Below are positions 43,329-54,726 of a DNA stretch of 64,000 bases, piece after piece (positions within the stretch are counted from its first letter, which is position 1; each line of letters starts with the position of its first letter). The stretch is taken from NCBI GenBank assembly GCA_049515895.1, contig JBEKTQ010000004.1, positions 32,001 through 96,000 of the forward strand, written 5' to 3'. This DNA comes from Candidatus Bathyarchaeia archaeon. GTDB taxonomy: Archaea; Thermoproteota; Bathyarchaeia; Bathyarchaeales; Bathycorpusculaceae. The notes under the pieces were generated by a model. That model made no database searches, had not been told where the DNA came from, and saw only the letters and a list, made by a program, of their open reading frames with translations. A program made the translations under genes and the position numbers.

Positions 43329-44648
43329 ATGGCAGACGGAACATACTGGAACAAAAGAGTTGAAACCATGCCTGCTCAAGAATTAAAGAAACGTCAGCTT
43401 GAAGAGCTGAAAAGGCTGGCAAAGCATTGTTATGAGAATAGTTCTTTTTACAAGAAAAGACTTGACAGCGTAGGATTAAAACCTGAAAGCATACATTCAC
43501 TTGACGATCTCACAAAGATTCCCTTCACAGTCAAGAGCGATTTGAAAGACAATTATCCTTTTGGGATGGTCGCCGCTAAATCTGACGAGATAGTGGAGAT
43601 TCATGCTTCAAGTGGAACAACTGGAAACCCCATAGTCGGAGCATACACTCAACATGACATTGATGTTTGGCAAGAACTTATGGCTAGGTCAATCTACGTA
43701 GCAGGCGGAAGACGCCAAGATACAATACACATCGCCTATGGCTACGGTTTGTTCACCGGCGGCTTCGGTTTTCATTACGGCGCTCAAAAAATTGGGGCGA
43801 AAATTGTTCCTGCAAGCGGCGGGATGACTCAACGTCAAATAAAGCTCATGAAAGATTTGGGCGTCACGATTCTGGCTTGCACCCCAAGCTTCGCGGTTTA
43901 TCTGGCTGAAACTATGGCTCAAGAAGGCGTTGACCCGAAGAAAGACCTTAAACTTAAAATTGGGATGTTTGGGGCAGAGCCTTGGTCCGACAAGATAAGG
44001 GAAAGAATAGAGAACGAGTTAGGCATTAATGCTTTTGACGTTTACGGGTTAACCGAGCTTTGTGGTCCAGGCGTTGCCATTGAATGCGCTGAGCATAAGG
44101 GACTTCACATTTGGGAAGACCATTTTATCGTGGAAACCATTGATTCTGACACAGGCGAGGTTTTGCCTGCCGGCGAGGAAGGAGAATTGGTCTTTACTGG
44201 CTTGACGAAAATGGGGCTTCCGATGCTTAGGTACCGGACCCGAGACATATCGAAGGTAGAAACGGAAAAATGCGCCTGCGGACGGACCCATGCCAGGATG
44301 ATGCGTGTTCAAGGTAGGTCAGATGACATGCTGATTATTCGTGGAGTAAACGTGTTCCCATCGCAAATCGAATACGCGGTAATGTGTTTCTCGGAGCTTG
44401 CCGCTCAATACGTGATTATTGTCGACAGACCAGGCGCCTTAGATACGTTTGTTGTTAAGGTTGAATTATCTGAGAAAGCAGCTAAAGATCCCAAAGTAGA
44501 TACGAACGCGTTGAAAAACAGCATTCAAAAGCAAATTCATATAGTAACGGGTATCTCCGCTGACGTTGAAATTGTGAAGCCGGGTGAGCTTCCGAGGACT
44601 GAGGGAAAAGCAAAAAGGGTTCTGGACTTACGCAAAGGCAAAATGTAA
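43329..44648 (+). CDS. paaK: Phenylacetate-CoA ligase family protein
   Basis: HASSGTTGNP, YGYGLFTGGFG, GAEPW, YGLTE..GPG, RYRTRD, GRSDDM..RGVNVFP. Confidence 0.93.
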   Translation: MADGTYWNKRVETMPAQELKKRQLEELKRLAKHCYENSSFYKKRLDSVGLKPESIHSLDDLTKIPFTVKSDLKDNYPFGMVAAKSDEIVEIHASSGTTGNPIVGAYTQHDIDVWQELMARSIYVAGGRRQDTIHIAYGYGLFTGGFGFHYGAQKIGAKIVPASGGMTQRQIKLMKDLGVTILACTPSFAVYLAETMAQEGVDPKKDLKLKIGMFGAEPWSDKIRERIENELGINAFDVYGLTELCGPGVAIECAEHKGLHIWEDHFIVETIDSDTGEVLPAGEEGELVFTGLTKMGLPMLRYRTRDISKVETEKCACGRTHARMMRVQGRSDDMLIIRGVNVFPSQIEYAVMCFSELAAQYVIIVDRPGALDTFVVKVELSEKAAKDPKVDTNALKNSIQKQIHIVTGISADVEIVKPGELPRTEGKAKRVLDLRKGKM

Positions 44649-44660
44649 AGGACTAAACCT

Positions 44661-46850
44661 ATGACTTCCAAAATTGCTGTAGATAAGCCGGGCGATTTTG
44701 CCTTGCTTAACGGCGATGAAGCAGTTGCTAGAGGCGCTGTTGAAGCCTCCGTCAAAGTAGCCGCTTCTTACCCCGGAACACCCGCTACCGAAATTTTGGA
44801 AACCCTAGCTGAAGTATCAAAAGAATTTGACATCTACGCAGAATGGAGCATAAACGAGATTGTTGCCACCGAGGTAGCTGCCGGCGCTTCGATGGCAGGT
44901 GTTCGCTCTATTGTTTCAATGAAACATGTTGGCCTAAACGTTGCCTCGGATGCGGCCATGACATTGGCATACACTGGAGTTGAGGGTGGACTGTTAATCG
45001 CTGTCTGTGATGACCCAGCTTTGCATAGCAGCCAAAACGAGCAGGACACAAGATATTTTGCGGTTCATTCGAAGTTGCCTTTGCTGGATGCGGGAAATCC
45101 GCAGGAAGCCTTGGATATGGCTAGAGAAGCGTTTGAATTAAGCGAAAGGCTGCATTTGCCAGTTATCTTGCGTTTGACGACAAGGGTTGCTCATGGGAAG
45201 GCTCGAGTGAGACTTGGTCGGTTGCATAAGTTGAGTCGAAAAGCTGATTTTGATAAACAAGGTTCAAAATGGGTAATGGTTCCGGCTAACGCAATTCGGC
45301 AGCACAGAGTCTTAGAAGTAAAGATGGCAGAAACAAAAACACTTGTTAATCATTCAAAGTTTAATGTGATTGAAGATAATGCGAGCGACATAGGAATTAT
45401 AGGAAGTGGAGTAGGTTACTATTATGCCCGTTCAGTGCTCGACACGAAAAAGTTTTCTTGGTTAAAGCTAGGTTTCGTTCATCCTTTTCCTCAGGAGATT
45501 GTTGAAAGATTTGCGCTCAAAGTAAAAAAACTCATAATAATTGAGGAGCTAAGGCCGTACATTGAAGAAAATATCCAGCGGTTAGGTCTGCAAGCCCTTG
45601 GAAAAAATCAGTTAGGCTTGGAGGAAATTGGCGAGTTAACGCCCGATAATGTACGCCAAGCCTTCGCAAGTTTAGGGTTAACAGCTAAAGCAGAGCCGCA
45701 GGAATCATTGAACTTGCAGCCAAGACCACCCAATCTTTGCCCAGGCTGTCCTCACAGAGCTTTTTATTATGCCCTAAACATGGTAAATCAGCATGTTAAC
45801 TGTGACAACGACAAATGCGTCGGCTGTGACATTTGCGAGTACGTTTGCTCTTTTGAGAAGGAGGGAGTTTTTAACCCGCTTAAGTCGCGTATCCGCTCGG
45901 TGAGGCTTGGTCAAGTTTTCAACACCGCGATAACATGCAAAGCCTGCATTGACGCCCCATGCATTACCGCTTGCCCGGAAAAAGCTCTGGCGCGGTCAAA
46001 TAAAAGCGGAGCTATCATGGTCGACCAAGAAAAATGCAAGGGCTGCCCATGGTGCATCGAAGCATGTGAGTTCGGCGCAGTTACGGTCAACTCGCGCACA
46101 CGTAAAGCCATAATATGCGACACATGCAGCGGGGAACCCAAATGCATTCCTTTTTGCCCCGAGGGAGCTTTGAGCTTATCTGGAAAATCAAACGACAAAA
46201 TCGTTACAGGCGACATCGGCTGCTACACGCTTGGTGTTTTGCCGCCTGTCAACACGGTTCAAACGTGCTTGTGTATGGGGGCTGGGATTTCCCAGGCTGC
46301 AGGAATGTTTCATGCTGGTGTAAAGGATAAGGTGTTCTCGGTTATCGGTGACTCGACGTTTTTCCACGCGGGTATGCCTGGGTTGATGAATATAGTGTAT
46401 AACAGGGCTAACGTATGCGTGGTCATCATGGATAATAGCACGGTTGCGATGACGGGGCATCAGCCTACGCCTGGCTCGGGAAAAACAGCGATGGGAGCGG
46501 ACGCTAAAATCCTGAAGCTGGTAGACGTTGCTAAGGGGCTTGGAATAGACAAAGTGGCGGTTGTTGACCCGTATGATATTGAAGGCACAATTTCATCTCT
46601 AAGGAAAATTATTGATTACGATGGTCCATCTGTCATCATTTCACAGAGACCCTGCCCCCTTTTGATTGAAAGAGGCAAGCCTAGGGAAACCACGGATAAG
46701 TGTAATGACTGCGAGGTTTGCACGAAAGCTTTCGGCTGCCCCGCCATCTACAAAGTAAACGGACAAGTTGAGATAGATTCATCGCTCTGCTACGGATGCG
46801 GCGTCTGCGAAGTCGTCTGCCCCTTTGAAGCGATTAGGAGGAAAGAATGA
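44661..46850 (+). CDS. iorA: Indolepyruvate:ferredoxin oxidoreductase alpha subunit with inserted polyferredoxin
   Basis: YPGTPATE, MKHVGLNVA, SQNEQD, CPGCPHR, GDIGCY, IGDSTFFH, DNSTVAMTGHQP, C-terminal 2x[4Fe-4S]. Confidence 0.93.
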   Translation: MTSKIAVDKPGDFALLNGDEAVARGAVEASVKVAASYPGTPATEILETLAEVSKEFDIYAEWSINEIVATEVAAGASMAGVRSIVSMKHVGLNVASDAAMTLAYTGVEGGLLIAVCDDPALHSSQNEQDTRYFAVHSKLPLLDAGNPQEALDMAREAFELSERLHLPVILRLTTRVAHGKARVRLGRLHKLSRKADFDKQGSKWVMVPANAIRQHRVLEVKMAETKTLVNHSKFNVIEDNASDIGIIGSGVGYYYARSVLDTKKFSWLKLGFVHPFPQEIVERFALKVKKLIIIEELRPYIEENIQRLGLQALGKNQLGLEEIGELTPDNVRQAFASLGLTAKAEPQESLNLQPRPPNLCPGCPHRAFYYALNMVNQHVNCDNDKCVGCDICEYVCSFEKEGVFNPLKSRIRSVRLGQVFNTAITCKACIDAPCITACPEKALARSNKSGAIMVDQEKCKGCPWCIEACEFGAVTVNSRTRKAIICDTCSGEPKCIPFCPEGALSLSGKSNDKIVTGDIGCYTLGVLPPVNTVQTCLCMGAGISQAAGMFHAGVKDKVFSVIGDSTFFHAGMPGLMNIVYNRANVCVVIMDNSTVAMTGHQPTPGSGKTAMGADAKILKLVDVAKGLGIDKVAVVDPYDIEGTISSLRKIIDYDGPSVIISQRPCPLLIERGKPRETTDKCNDCEVCTKAFGCPAIYKVNGQVEIDSSLCYGCGVCEVVCPFEAIRRKE

Positions 46851-47440
46851 TGAATCGTCTCGACACAGTTTTCAGCGGCGTCGGTGGACAGGGAGTTGTA
46901 GTTTTAAGCGATATTTTCTGTGAAGCCGCAATACTGGAAGGATTTGATGTAGCGAAGGCTGAAATTCATGGGATGGCGCAGCGGGGCGGTTCAATAGTTG
47001 CTTACGCGAGAATAGGCAATAAAGTTGAGTCGCCAATGATTGAAACTGGGAAGGCTGATGTTCTAGTGGGTTTTGAGGTTCTCGAGGCTGCGAGGGCTTC
47101 GCCGATGCTTAAGCGGGGCGGCGATGTAATTGTTAATATGAAGTATATTCAGCCTTGTATCACTGGCTCAGACGTGAAGCCTAAGAAGGCGGATGAGCTG
47201 ATGCAGATTTTGAGGGAGAAAGCGCAGGTGCATGAAGTTGACGGGGCAGGCATCGCTGAGAAGCTTGGGAACTTGTTGGTTGTGAATACAATTCTGCTAG
47301 GGGCGCTCTCAGCACTTCCTGAAGTCCCGGTTAAGGCAGAGTCGTTCAAGCTTGCTATCGCAGGCAGGCTTAGAGAAAAATACATCAACGTGAACTTAAA
47401 GGCGTTTAAAATGGGCAGAGACAGCGTTCAACCTAGCTAA
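46847..47440 (+). CDS. iorB: Indolepyruvate:ferredoxin oxidoreductase beta subunit
   Basis: GVGGQG, EIHGMAQRGGS, NTILLG, NLKAF; overlaps the iorA stop codon. Confidence 0.93.
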   Translation: MMNRLDTVFSGVGGQGVVVLSDIFCEAAILEGFDVAKAEIHGMAQRGGSIVAYARIGNKVESPMIETGKADVLVGFEVLEAARASPMLKRGGDVIVNMKYIQPCITGSDVKPKKADELMQILREKAQVHEVDGAGIAEKLGNLLVVNTILLGALSALPEVPVKAESFKLAIAGRLREKYINVNLKAFKMGRDSVQPS

Positions 47441-51177: not shown

Positions 51178-51681
51178 TTAACTTGTTTTTTCTGTCGGTT
51201 TTTGGAGCAGCTTTCTAATGGCGCTGATTCTTGCTTTTTGAGCTAGTGTATCGCTAGTGACAAGGGTCAATGCTTCTTCAGGGCACCATTTGACGCATTG
51301 GGGTCCGTCGGGTTTGTCTTTGCAGAGGTCGCAGACGTAGACCACTTTGGTTTCGGGATGCAGCATTATGGCGCCGTAGTCGCATGCTTCGATGCACCAT
51401 CCGCAGCCGTTGCATTTGTCCTTGTCAAGGACAATGTTTCCGGTATCCTCTGACTGTGTGAGTGCATTTTTTGGACAAGCCGCTACGCACGCTGGGGCCT
51501 CGCAGAGCCTGCATGTAACTGACATGTTGGCGACTTGGTTAACGCGGACAACGCGTATGCGTGATTTAAGGGGGTTGAATGCTTTTTCTTTGGTGAATGA
51601 GCAGGCGTATTCGCAGATTTGGCAGCCTACACATTTTTCCGGGTCAACTGAAACGAATTTTCTTTCGCGAGTTTTGACCAT
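51178..51681 (-). CDS. 4x[4Fe-4S] electron-transfer subunit (DmsB/CooF-like) of aldehyde oxidoreductase
   Basis: 16 Cys in CxxCxxCxxxC/CP motifs; starts 2 nt after the aor stop. Confidence 0.9.
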   Translation of the reverse strand: MVKTRERKFVSVDPEKCVGCQICEYACSFTKEKAFNPLKSRIRVVRVNQVANMSVTCRLCEAPACVAACPKNALTQSEDTGNIVLDKDKCNGCGWCIEACDYGAIMLHPETKVVYVCDLCKDKPDGPQCVKWCPEEALTLVTSDTLAQKARISAIRKLLQKPTEKTS

Positions 51682-51683
51682 TT

Positions 51684-53540
51684 TTAATCCTCTTTTCCTT
51701 CAACTATGCCTGATAAATCTTCCAGTCCAAGCTTGGTGAGCACATCTTTTGTGGGTACTCCTTCAAGCGTCCAGTTGCGTGACAGGTAATAGTCATCGAG
51801 AAGCAAGTCAAGCTCCTCCTGAGTTACCACGGAGCCTTTTCCTGGGCCATCATCAGTTATTGGTTGGTTCATGACTTTCCACGGCAACGTGTCGTCTTTG
51901 CGACTTAATCCTTCCCGGATGTTAATTAGCCGCGCAAGATTGTTTATCCGTTCGCCTGCAAGGCTTAGCTCCTGCGGAGTCATCTCGTACCCCGTTACCA
52001 GAGTGTAAAGCTTAGCCATGTCAGGCAACTCCTTGTACAGGGTGCCTCTAGCGTTCTTGCAGATAATGAGTGAATCAATTAAAGCGTAAATATCTTCGGA
52101 ATCTTTGACCAGTTTGCCTCGGCCTTTTTCAGCTTTAAAACGGTCAACTTTACCCGATATATCAAACGCATACGCGCCGCTGCGGTTGTGGTCAGCTCCA
52201 CGGAAGGAAACTGCAAACCCTAAAGCAGCGGTTTTCAAGCATCTTAAATCGTAGCCTGTGACTTCCAACCCCTTGATGTTCTGAGCAAGCTTATCAGAGC
52301 CTTTGCCGATTTTCGCTGCTGCTGCTTTCGCCCCATCAGCCAAGACCTCGCCGATTCCCTCTCGTTTGCCTATTTTCTCAATTAGCTGCAAGAGGGCTTC
52401 TGCGTTTCCAAAATGAGCGTCAATTCCATCAAGCTCCTCATGTGATAAGATGCCTTTTTCATGACAATCCATTACGAAACTGACCGTCACACCCGTGCTT
52501 GTCGCATCTAAACCATAATAATTGCAGAGGTCACTGGCTTTGATTATTGCGTCAAGCTTATCGACACCGCAGTTCGGGCCGAGTGCCCAGATGTTATCGT
52601 ATTCCATGCGTGCCATGGTTCCTTTGTATGGCCCATCATGGATAACGGCTTCATGCTCGCACCGCATTGCGCATGAGTTGCAAGCGATTATTTTCGCGAC
52701 GTATCTTTCGTTTAGAGTTTCACCGCTTACTTTTTCAGCGTTATCAAAATATGAGTTATTGTAGTTGCGTGTGGGCAAGCAGTGTAGTGCGTTTAGAATC
52801 ATAACGTTTTCTGCTGACCCCAATGTTCGGTATTTTTGCGCTGCTGGTCCTTTCATTCTTTCATGAAACTCCTTGACCATCTCAATAAATTCTTCAGGCT
52901 TAGCGACAACAATGTCTTTGGTTCCCCGCACAGCGATGGCTTTTAGGTTCTTTGACCCCATGACTGCGCCAAGGCCTGTTCTTCCAGCTGCGCGGGTTTT
53001 CTCGTTTGTTATGTTGGCGATTTTGGACTGTTTTTCGCCTGCCAAACCAATGGAGGCAACGCGCACGTAGTAGTCCCCAAGTTCCTCTTTAACTGCGTCT
53101 TCGGTTTCGGAGGGCGATTTACCCCAAATTTTTTCTGCATCAAGTAACTGGACTGAATCATCATCTATCCAAAGGTAAACGGGTCTTTCGGCTTTCCCAG
53201 TTAGAATTATAGCGTCGTAGCCAGCTCTTTTTATTTCTGCTCCGAAGGTGCCGTGGCTTACTGCCTCACCGACACCGCCCGTTTCAGGTGATTTTGAAAT
53301 GAACGCGTGTCCATTCCCGCCCGTCGGGAACATAGTTCCTGAAACTGGACCCACTGCTAGAACCAGCGGGTTTTCAGGATTGAATGGGTCAACGCCTGCT
53401 TTTGAGTTGGCTAGCCAAAGTTTCATGCCTAAGCCTATGCCGCCAATGTATTTTTTGGCTGTTTCCTCGTCTAGTTTCTCCATAGTTATTTTGCCTATGG
53501 ATAAGTTAACGCGTAGAACCCTTCCTGCGTAACCGAGCAA
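51684..53540 (-). CDS. aor: Tungsten-dependent aldehyde:ferredoxin oxidoreductase family protein
   Basis: GYAGRVLRVNL, KSPETG, AGYDAII, RAAGRTGLGAVMGSKNLKAI, CNSCAMRC, EYD, IIC, GERI..L.R. Confidence 0.95.
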   Translation of the reverse strand: MLGYAGRVLRVNLSIGKITMEKLDEETAKKYIGGIGLGMKLWLANSKAGVDPFNPENPLVLAVGPVSGTMFPTGGNGHAFISKSPETGGVGEAVSHGTFGAEIKRAGYDAIILTGKAERPVYLWIDDDSVQLLDAEKIWGKSPSETEDAVKEELGDYYVRVASIGLAGEKQSKIANITNEKTRAAGRTGLGAVMGSKNLKAIAVRGTKDIVVAKPEEFIEMVKEFHERMKGPAAQKYRTLGSAENVMILNALHCLPTRNYNNSYFDNAEKVSGETLNERYVAKIIACNSCAMRCEHEAVIHDGPYKGTMARMEYDNIWALGPNCGVDKLDAIIKASDLCNYYGLDATSTGVTVSFVMDCHEKGILSHEELDGIDAHFGNAEALLQLIEKIGKREGIGEVLADGAKAAAAKIGKGSDKLAQNIKGLEVTGYDLRCLKTAALGFAVSFRGADHNRSGAYAFDISGKVDRFKAEKGRGKLVKDSEDIYALIDSLIICKNARGTLYKELPDMAKLYTLVTGYEMTPQELSLAGERINNLARLINIREGLSRKDDTLPWKVMNQPITDDGPGKGSVVTQEELDLLLDDYYLSRNWTLEGVPTKDVLTKLGLEDLSGIVEGKED

Positions 53541-54087: not shown

Positions 54088-54726
54088 GTGAACGGCATGG
54101 TTAAAGTCGAAAAATCCAAATCTGTCTATTGGCTGGATAACAAACTTTACTTGAACATTACCAACCGCTGCTCTAACCGCTGCTTTTTCTGTCTCAAAAA
54201 TTTCAAGCAAGGTGTAGGCGGCTTCAGCCTAAAACTCGTTGCGGAACCGAGTTTCGAACAGATTATAGACGAACTTAAAGGGGTGCTGGGCACGCGAAAT
54301 TGGGCTGAAGCGGTTTTCTGCGGCTTCGGGGAGCCGACAGAGCGGCTTGATGTTTTGTTGATGGTTGCGCGTTGGATTAGGCAGCATTATGGCAAGCCGC
54401 TTAAGATACGACTAAACACGAATGGACATGGCTCAGTGATTAACAGAGGCAGGGATGTGTCTGCTGAGTTGAGGGCAGCAGGGGTTGACAAGGTGAGCGT
54501 TAGCTTGAACGCTGGGGATAAGGAAACGTATGAGCAGGTTTGTAAGCCAACCTTCGAGGGAGCTTACGAGGCAATTATAGAGTTTATACGGAAAGCTAAG
54601 CCCTTTTTACAGATAGAGGCTACTGCGGTCAGACTGCCTGAGGTTGACTTAGCTAAGGCAAAGGCGGTTGCGGACGAGTTGGGCGTCGGCTTTAGAGTTC
54701 GAGAGTATATTCCTTGCTTTTACTAG
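54088..54726 (+). CDS. Radical SAM protein (TatD-associated family)
   Basis: LYLNITNRCSNRCFFC, VFCGFGEPT, RLNTNG, SVSLNA. Confidence 0.85.
   Translation: MNGMVKVEKSKSVYWLDNKLYLNITNRCSNRCFFCLKNFKQGVGGFSLKLVAEPSFEQIIDELKGVLGTRNWAEAVFCGFGEPTERLDVLLMVARWIRQHYGKPLKIRLNTNGHGSVINRGRDVSAELRAAGVDKVSVSLNAGDKETYEQVCKPTFEGAYEAIIEFIRKAKPFLQIEATAVRLPEVDLAKAKAVADELGVGFRVREYIPCFY

Follow-up and report, generated by a model that had tools for sequence, protein, structure and literature searches.

Indolepyruvate:ferredoxin oxidoreductase (IOR), an enzyme reportedly characterised from Pyrococcus furiosus by Mai and Adams in 1994, has as its canonical alpha subunit IorA (TIGR03336), a protein that combines a POR_N domain, a thiamine pyrophosphate (TPP)-binding TPP_enzyme_C domain, the four Cys of a TPP-proximal [4Fe-4S] cluster and a C-terminal 2x[4Fe-4S] domain, and that is encoded adjacent to IorB. 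The domains and the four Cys recur, with an IorB-type gene alongside, in an IorA encoded by a Candidatus Bathyarchaeia archaeon (assembly GCA_049515895.1, contig JBEKTQ010000004.1, positions 32,001 to 96,000; this whole stretch of 64,000 nucleotides is referred to here as the window, and coordinates are given within it). By contrast with the 150 nearest IorA cluster representatives, none of which has such an insert, the window protein carries a 139-aa domain with motifs for four clusters between the second and third Cys of the proximal-cluster motif. From the evidence described below, this protein probably represents a Bathyarchaeia-specific IorA subfamily in which a polyferredoxin of the type found in aldehyde:ferredoxin oxidoreductase (AOR) has been captured and acts as a built-in electron-transfer adaptor. 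A sequence search of the solved structures in the Protein Data Bank (PDB) revealed no IOR.

The AOR small subunits WorS (9mqx_E), WOR5-S (6x6u_B) and AorA (8c0z_C) form, like the insert, part of a four-motif, 16-Cys polyferredoxin family. Free members of the family pass electrons from the cluster of a catalytic subunit on to another module. In AorABC, FS1 and FS2 are the clusters on the AorB side, and FS4 extends to the FAD of AorC (available passages of PMC10413684); in WorABCSL the cluster strings of WorS lead to the bifurcating WorABC core (PMC12318220). These small subunits are separate polypeptides encoded beside an AOR gene, whereas the insert is internal to IorA and, in 74 of 80 loci, has no linked AOR. 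In addition, free subunits possess a C-terminal tail (median 22 aa) that the insert lacks, and the insert carries an extra invariant residue, Cys381, relative to the AOR small subunits. Across the insert and the free archaeal subunits, 36 positions are common at a level of at least 90%. Among 2-oxoacid:ferredoxin oxidoreductases (OFORs), for which descriptions usually give one or three clusters, additional poly-[4Fe-4S] capacity comparable to that of the insert-bearing IOR is provided by PorE, a polyferredoxin associated with the pyruvate:ferredoxin oxidoreductase (PFOR) of Methanococcus maripaludis; unlike the insert, PorE binds loosely, as a protein in its own right, and the likeness is one of description (available passages of PMC13768988).

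Judged by its arrangement, the closest known analogue of the insert-bearing IorA appears to be PadI, the beta subunit of NADH-dependent phenylglyoxylate dehydrogenase, the architecture of which was deduced from the NCBIfam profile NF045766. The Pad enzyme has an FAD/NAD subunit. PadI and IorA both join an OFOR subunit of the TPP and proximal-cluster type covalently to a four-cluster ferredoxin, which in both is attached beside the N-terminal CxxC; in PadI the ferredoxin is N-terminal and precedes the CxxC, whereas in IorA it follows the CxxC by ~10 residues, within a fused alpha chain. Positions 6-140 of the PadI profile are matched by the insert and by the free ferredoxins of the window genome (designated G000), and positions 143-428 by an OFOR beta-type frame, G000:C13:21221-22105. 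The window IorA itself scores 77.6 bits against NF045766, far below the cut-off of 700 and in the ferredoxin part only, and is thus not a PadI.

The iorA open reading frame (ORF; 44661-46850, + strand) encodes a 729-aa product, which scores 693.8 bits against the NCBIfam model TIGR03336 (IOR_alpha), above the equivalog cut-off of 650.9, with the match divided into two stretches that break at residue 376, i.e. at the insert. The POR_N domain (PF01855, E 1.8e-18; residues 25-192, 44733-45236), the TPP_enzyme_C domain (PF02775, E 1.7e-22; residues 518-659, 46212-46637) and the canonical C-terminal 2x[4Fe-4S] domain (Pfam Fer4 and Fer4_10; residues 674-727, 46680-46841) are all contained in this single chain. 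An earlier note made from the DNA sequence alone, referred to here as the original prediction, had considered the last of these domains to be retained, and both Pfam and Cys conservation agree, with seven of its eight Cys invariant and C684 kept in at least 90% of a 144-sequence IorA alignment. The same note had reported an in-frame insert with 16 ferredoxin Cys, and this too is correct: the strings that it quoted are present as written, and the inserted domain occupies residues 374-512 (45780-46196), with the domain search placing Pfam Fer4_11 (residues 423-506) internally in IorA between POR_N and TPP_enzyme_C. Its 17 Cys comprise 16 in four ferredoxin motifs, at residues 386/389/392/396 (45816-45848), 426/429/434/438 (45936-45974), 459/462/465/469 (46035-46067) and 486/489/495/499 (46116-46157), together with Cys381 (45801-45803), which was recognised as an extra invariant residue in the alignment of inserts. 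The four conserved motifs are consistent with the built-in electron wire that had been proposed, in the sense of a predicted chain of four extra clusters. In an AlphaFold2 (AF2) model the IorA core has a per-residue confidence score (pLDDT) above 90, and its best structural matches are PFORs (e.g. 7plm_A, E 7e-23).

Both junctions of the insert are bridged in run X2, a peat metagenome from a study other than that of the possible source run X1. A single contig of 2706 nt there matches 45639-46600 throughout without any difference, gap or joint, and bears out the join on which the original prediction depended; runs X3 and X4 cover the stretch in pieces only and were not used. Junction residues are identical in 9/9 aligned orthologues, and intact insert-containing ORFs of at least 650 aa are found in 76 of 92 sequences. 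At loci L028, L039, L048, L055, L062 and L063, the IorA match is split into shorter pieces in contigs of metagenome-assembled genomes (MAGs), which may reflect assembly frameshifts. The 92 sequences yielded 85 inserts, the other seven loci falling outside the extraction pattern, and the Cys count is 17 in 84 of the 85 inserts and 18 in one. Among the 81 inserts of equal length, all 17 Cys positions are invariant, including Cys381, which lies five residues before the first cluster motif and is mostly replaced by Ala in free subunits. The ratio of nonsynonymous to synonymous substitution rates (dN/dS), obtained from 400 random pairs of the 76 intact genes and rough because dS is near saturation, is ~0.08 for the insert, compared with 0.056 for the N-terminal part, 0.062 for the TPP domain and 0.129 for the C-terminal ferredoxin domain. 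Because of the invariant Cys and the low dN/dS, the insert is, on sequence evidence, maintained by selection.

The position of the insert is defined by four Cys, namely Cys360 and Cys363 of the CPGC motif (45738-45749), Cys521 of the GDIGC motif (46209-46223) and Cys665 (46653-46655), which are invariant in 144/144 aligned IorA sequences. The CPGC pair and the GDIGC Cys are also conserved in 150/150 IorA cluster representatives, the top 150 found when 1.84 billion clusters (50% identity) were searched, and the spacing from the second to the third Cys is 21-35 residues in all 150 versus 157 in the window IorA; the original prediction, in which the flanking motifs were normally only a few residues apart, had therefore underestimated the usual loop. 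In a phmmer search of the PDB, the insert-free TPP half gave weak OFOR beta matches (E 0.28-0.76), of which the alignments to 5b46_B (residues 12-198) and 1b0p_A (ending at 1071), with E of 0.4-0.8, span the first to the last Cys (Cys665) and pair the CPGC Cys with the CxxC near the N terminus of OFOR beta chains, and these alignments serve as consistency rather than proof. The assignment of the IorA Cys also draws on the ligand numbers of the solved enzymes. Together with the Cys invariance, the PFOR-like core and the available passages of PMC13768988, in which the proximal cluster of OFORs is assigned to domain VI and the medial and distal clusters to domain V, these alignments suggest that Cys360 and Cys363 are ligands 1 and 2 of the TPP-proximal cluster, Cys521 the third and Cys665 the fourth, and that the insert would interrupt the loop between ligands 2 and 3. 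Both ends of the insert lie within ~10 residues of these putative ligands, and the topology of such ferredoxins suggests that the half made of motifs 1 and 4 would face the proximal cluster. Seven other IorA relatives (P0133, P0146, P0148, P0155, P0168, P0222 and P0268) are 839-1384 aa long; these are probably IorB fusions or other extensions, and in all seven the stretch from the second to the third Cys is free of an insert. An ESM Atlas search with residues 345-668 returned only ordinary TPP_enzyme_C and Fer4 clusters, with scores of at most 0.88.

The relatives of the insert in the PDB are 9mqx_E (E 3e-27), 6x6u_B (E 2e-26) and 8c0z_C (E 2e-23), with entries 9mqx and 8c0z also containing AOR catalytic chains, and its free-standing relatives across the phylum directly adjoin an AOR gene in 20 of 20 cases (3 of 6 in the window genome, within the short loci available). 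From these matches and this linkage, the sequences identify the AOR small-subunit family (WorS/AorA/WOR5-S) as the donor, in agreement with the domain-insertion chimera and the AOR-type source that had been proposed. The original prediction had further emphasised a close parallel to the neighbouring free-standing AOR Fe-S subunit of the window (51178-51681, - strand; 167 aa; 9mqx_E, E 1.2e-26), a paralogue of the insert that was used here as a comparator. The parallel is real, with 67/133 identities (50%, E 2e-46, BLASTP) between IorA 377-506 and residues 8-140 of the subunit, but it is not special: free paralogues in the window genome are 41-51% identical to the insert, four of these 47-51%, and free subunits elsewhere reach 58%. 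Since other free subunits come about as close or closer and the neighbouring subunit falls into a different subclade of the insert tree, the likeness is one of family level and not of recent local duplication.

The insert tree, which realises the comparison with AOR subunits suggested with the original prediction, was a quick maximum-likelihood search over 102 rows, comprising 40 inserts (every second of 79 unique) and 62 free proteins. From the insert-only search, the range P0275-P0312 was used, which leaves P0271-P0274 outside, and P0303 and P0310 were dropped; of these short proteins, P0271-P0274 and P0303 bear IorA flank motifs, and P0310 (82 aa), without them, was likewise judged to be a fragment. 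In this tree all inserts group in a single clade (SH-aLRT 100), which is placed among AOR-linked subunits (support 89). In a second tree of 53 rows, built from the IorA core without insert residues, 29 insert-bearing rows and the insert-free protein P0121 likewise form one clade (SH-aLRT 100), in which P0121 pairs with an insert-bearing row (support 96). The two trees come from quick searches with no bootstrapping, and their root was set by the analyst. P0121 is 607 aa long, shows 65% identity on both flanks, retains flanking linker residues in its loop and is recorded as two full-length sequences from different sources; the genome that encodes it was not found among 151 genomes of the family sample. 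These topologies fit one gain of the insert followed by at least one loss, and P0121 may have reached its state through fission rather than loss.

A search with the region around the insert (residues 345-535) gave 4523 matches at E <=0.001 among 7999 candidates scored, and the best 120 protein clusters show 73-88% identity over 98-100% of the region, with 106 of them 726-733 aa long. Where names are given, those of JGI read IOR alpha subunit and those of NCBI thiamine pyrophosphate-dependent enzyme of Bathyarchaeota or Bathyarchaeia, with one NCBI name Binatia. Species-representative genomes contain 169 matching stretches, of which the best 80 extend across the two junctions (67-88% identity) and come from MAGs titled Bathyarchaeota, Bathyarchaeia, Bathyarchaeales, Thermoproteota, Crenarchaeota or uncultured archaeon, several of them Bathy6. 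According to record titles, the close relatives stem from peat, bog and soil assemblies. The junction-spanning form is present in 18 of 401 genomes sampled across the phylum, all in two families (f1 and f5) of one order, in 34 of 151 genomes sampled from the order, and in 27 of 151 sampled from the family. In the order sample, 34 further genomes have only insert-free IorA (40-48% identity) and 83 have no match at E 1e-60, and in the family sample an insert-free paralogue accompanies the insert-bearing form in at least 8 of the 27. With insert-free IorA elsewhere in the order and both forms in some genomes, the insert-bearing protein is by its sequence distribution a distinct IorA subfamily, not simply the local orthologue. 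The finding named as telling against the original prediction, an architecture already common among IorA proteins, applies in half: the form is common within this one archaeal clade (34/151 genomes of the order and at least 80 species genomes), but it is absent from 150/150 of the nearest IorA cluster representatives.

The gene neighbourhood was compared over 80 insert-bearing loci, with flanks of up to 6 kb on each side. A PaaK-like gene lies upstream of iorA in 79 and IorB downstream in 78, and these are followed in frequency by a 4HBT thioesterase (61), ABC ATPases (59), two permeases (57 each), a periplasmic binding protein (56), an ACT-domain protein (49) and an ADP-forming acyl-CoA synthetase-type gene (43). 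The conserved context is thus paaK-iorA-iorB, usually accompanied by a liv-type ABC transporter, a thioesterase and an ADP-forming acyl-CoA synthetase. In the window, the PaaK-like aryl-acid CoA ligase (43329-44648, + strand; Pfam AMP-binding and AMP-binding_C_2) is directly 5' of iorA, and iorB (46847-47440, + strand) overlaps the iorA stop by 4 nt. The ligase scores 560.4 bits against TIGR02155 PaaK (cut-off 646.3); the iorB product scores 128.5 bits against Pfam POR (cut-off 27.4), and its top NCBIfam models are IOR beta, all below cut-off (e.g. TIGR03334, 173.3 versus 205.8). Because both proteins fall under the NCBIfam equivalog cut-offs, they are labelled PaaK-like and IorB-type. The CoA ligase suggests aryl-acid activation in the assimilatory direction, and the ADP-forming synthetase points to the fermentative direction, with energy conserved from aryl-acetyl-CoA. 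The IOR reaction may run as aryl-pyruvate oxidation or as reductive carboxylation of aryl-acetyl-CoA.

Around the window triad, a methionyl-tRNA synthetase and a PHP protein are encoded upstream, and a ketopantoate-reductase-like gene, then the AOR operon, downstream. The AOR catalytic subunit (51684-53540, - strand; Pfam AFOR_N and AFOR_C), mentioned here for context only, matches 9mqx_D (E 1e-129) and 1aor_A (E 6e-124). Just past its gene, on the opposite strand, lies a radical-SAM protein (54088-54726, + strand; Pfam Radical_SAM), which, by analogy with Pyrococcus, may be an AOR cofactor-related maturase. The window genome contains five AOR-family genes, of which G000:C10:107411-109255 and G000:C2:96892-98691 have no adjacent Fe-S subunit, and two free Fe-S subunits (C29 and C2:187518) show no AOR gene beside them over the extent of the short loci covered. 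Elsewhere in the genome, G000:C1:182348-182818 (L007) encodes a four-cluster ferredoxin of 149 aa that shares 32-33% identity with the insert. It adjoins a 426-aa frame that starts like an FAD/NAD(P)-dependent oxidoreductase and with which it may form an AorC-like pairing.

Taken together, the sequences show that a four-cluster polyferredoxin of the WorS/AorA/WOR5-S family was captured once by IorA, probably into the loop between Cys ligands 2 and 3 of the TPP-adjacent [4Fe-4S] cluster. The insert would fold and bind four clusters, so that an alpha subunit is predicted to hold seven [4Fe-4S] clusters (four in the insert, one proximal and two C-terminal), and would most likely extend or branch the internal wire of IOR toward a partner beyond, or besides, a small soluble ferredoxin. 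The adaptor role is proposed by analogy, as free members of the family wire AOR and the PadI domain operates in NADH-dependent phenylglyoxylate dehydrogenase. Several observations weigh against it. The AF2 model of the insert is unreliable (pLDDT 25-73); the canonical C-terminal ferredoxin domain is kept, so that the normal exit path may suffice; and the genes conserved within 6 kb across the 80 loci include none for a redox partner, be it a flavoprotein, a hydrogenase or another protein. Moreover, P0121 nests inside the insert-bearing clade without the insert, which suggests that the domain is dispensable for a functional-looking IorA, and this loss, together with the retained C-terminal ferredoxin domain, shows the insert to be an accessory and not a requirement.

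A more specific but rather unlikely form of the adaptor proposal, based on analogy, is a branched seven-cluster IOR, in which the insert would provide a second exit beside the proximal cluster and connect directly to a larger redox module, for instance a flavoprotein linked to NAD(P), a membrane complex or a bifurcating module. This idea draws on WorS, which links AOR to BfuABC, and on PadI in the NAD-linked Pad enzyme.

An accessory status could also mean that the insert is no conduit to a partner at all, and instead buffers electrons, senses redox state or oxygen, acts as a protective cap or is purely structural. The intact IorA of the lineage that lost the insert, the missing conserved partner gene and the retained exit domain are all in keeping with such a role. 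However, all 16 ligand Cys and the 36 family-signature positions have been retained, a pattern of a working cluster chain and not of a scaffold, and every characterised relative serves inter-subunit electron transfer (PMC10413684 and PMC12318220), which makes a role without electron conduction to a partner appear unlikely.

Coupling of IOR to AOR was raised as a possibility by the original prediction, which envisaged docking to the same partner as AOR or aldehyde oxidation linked to reductive carboxylation of aryl-acyl-CoA. In this proposal the insert would retain the face by which AOR small subunits contact the tungsten subunit, an AOR catalytic subunit would dock onto IorA, and aldehyde oxidation would feed the reductive carboxylation of aryl-acetyl-CoA, or the reverse. 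The insert is as close to WorS as a genuine small subunit is (98.3 bits against 9mqx_E, versus 96.7 for the neighbouring subunit), 20 of 20 free relatives across the phylum are AOR-linked, the AOR genes at C10 and C2 lack an adjacent Fe-S subunit, and in the window the AOR operon is 4.3 kb downstream of the IOR genes. Against this, an AOR with its Fe-S subunit occurs within 6 kb in only 6 of the 80 loci, all belonging to the closest kin of the window, so that synteny lends no support; the window AOR already has its own Fe-S subunit, of which the insert is not a recent copy; and the insert, which is anchored in IorA at both ends, must turn some of its surface toward that protein. The coupling proposal is weakened by these findings and now seems quite improbable.

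Self-association of the insert, as in AorA or HycB3/4, such that IOR units polymerise into a conducting filament or nanowire, is suggested by the presence of the filament-forming 8c0z_C and 7qv7_A/B among its PDB matches. An AorA filament has been described, and AorA and HDCR filaments require a C-terminal helix, deletion of which abolishes the filament (available passages of PMC10413684). Because the insert has no tail in which such a helix could reside, and its chain instead returns to IorA, a filament of the AorA type is very unlikely. Finally, an assembly chimera or mis-joined contig was considered and refuted by the bridging X2 contig, the shared junctions and intact ORFs of the orthologues, and the spanning of the junctions in the best 80 of 169 species-genome stretches, which leave it next to no likelihood.

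The original prediction stated that this architecture is not known from characterised IORs, and the literature searched agrees. No description of an internal ferredoxin domain in IorA was found in full-text literature searches read at abstract level, with subscription journals and supplements outside their scope. The available passages of the PFOR review PMC13768988 contain no mention of such a domain, and those of a termite Bathy-6 paper mention Ior generically only, with no internal ferredoxin domain. The sequences are not new, and their architecture can be seen in public automatic annotations; what does appear new is that the insertion, the family that donated it and its single origin have been recognised.

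A seven-cluster IOR would exemplify the transfer of an electron-wire module between unrelated enzymes, from a tungsten-dependent AOR to a TPP-dependent OFOR, with P0121 offering a natural insert-free comparison for biochemistry. If the insert does plug into a second acceptor, the abundant Bathyarchaeia of peat and soil would gain a ferredoxin-independent or two-acceptor route in aromatic 2-oxoacid metabolism, and the insert-bearing IOR could alter models of electron flow in the aromatic amino-acid or aryl-acid metabolism of these uncultured archaea.

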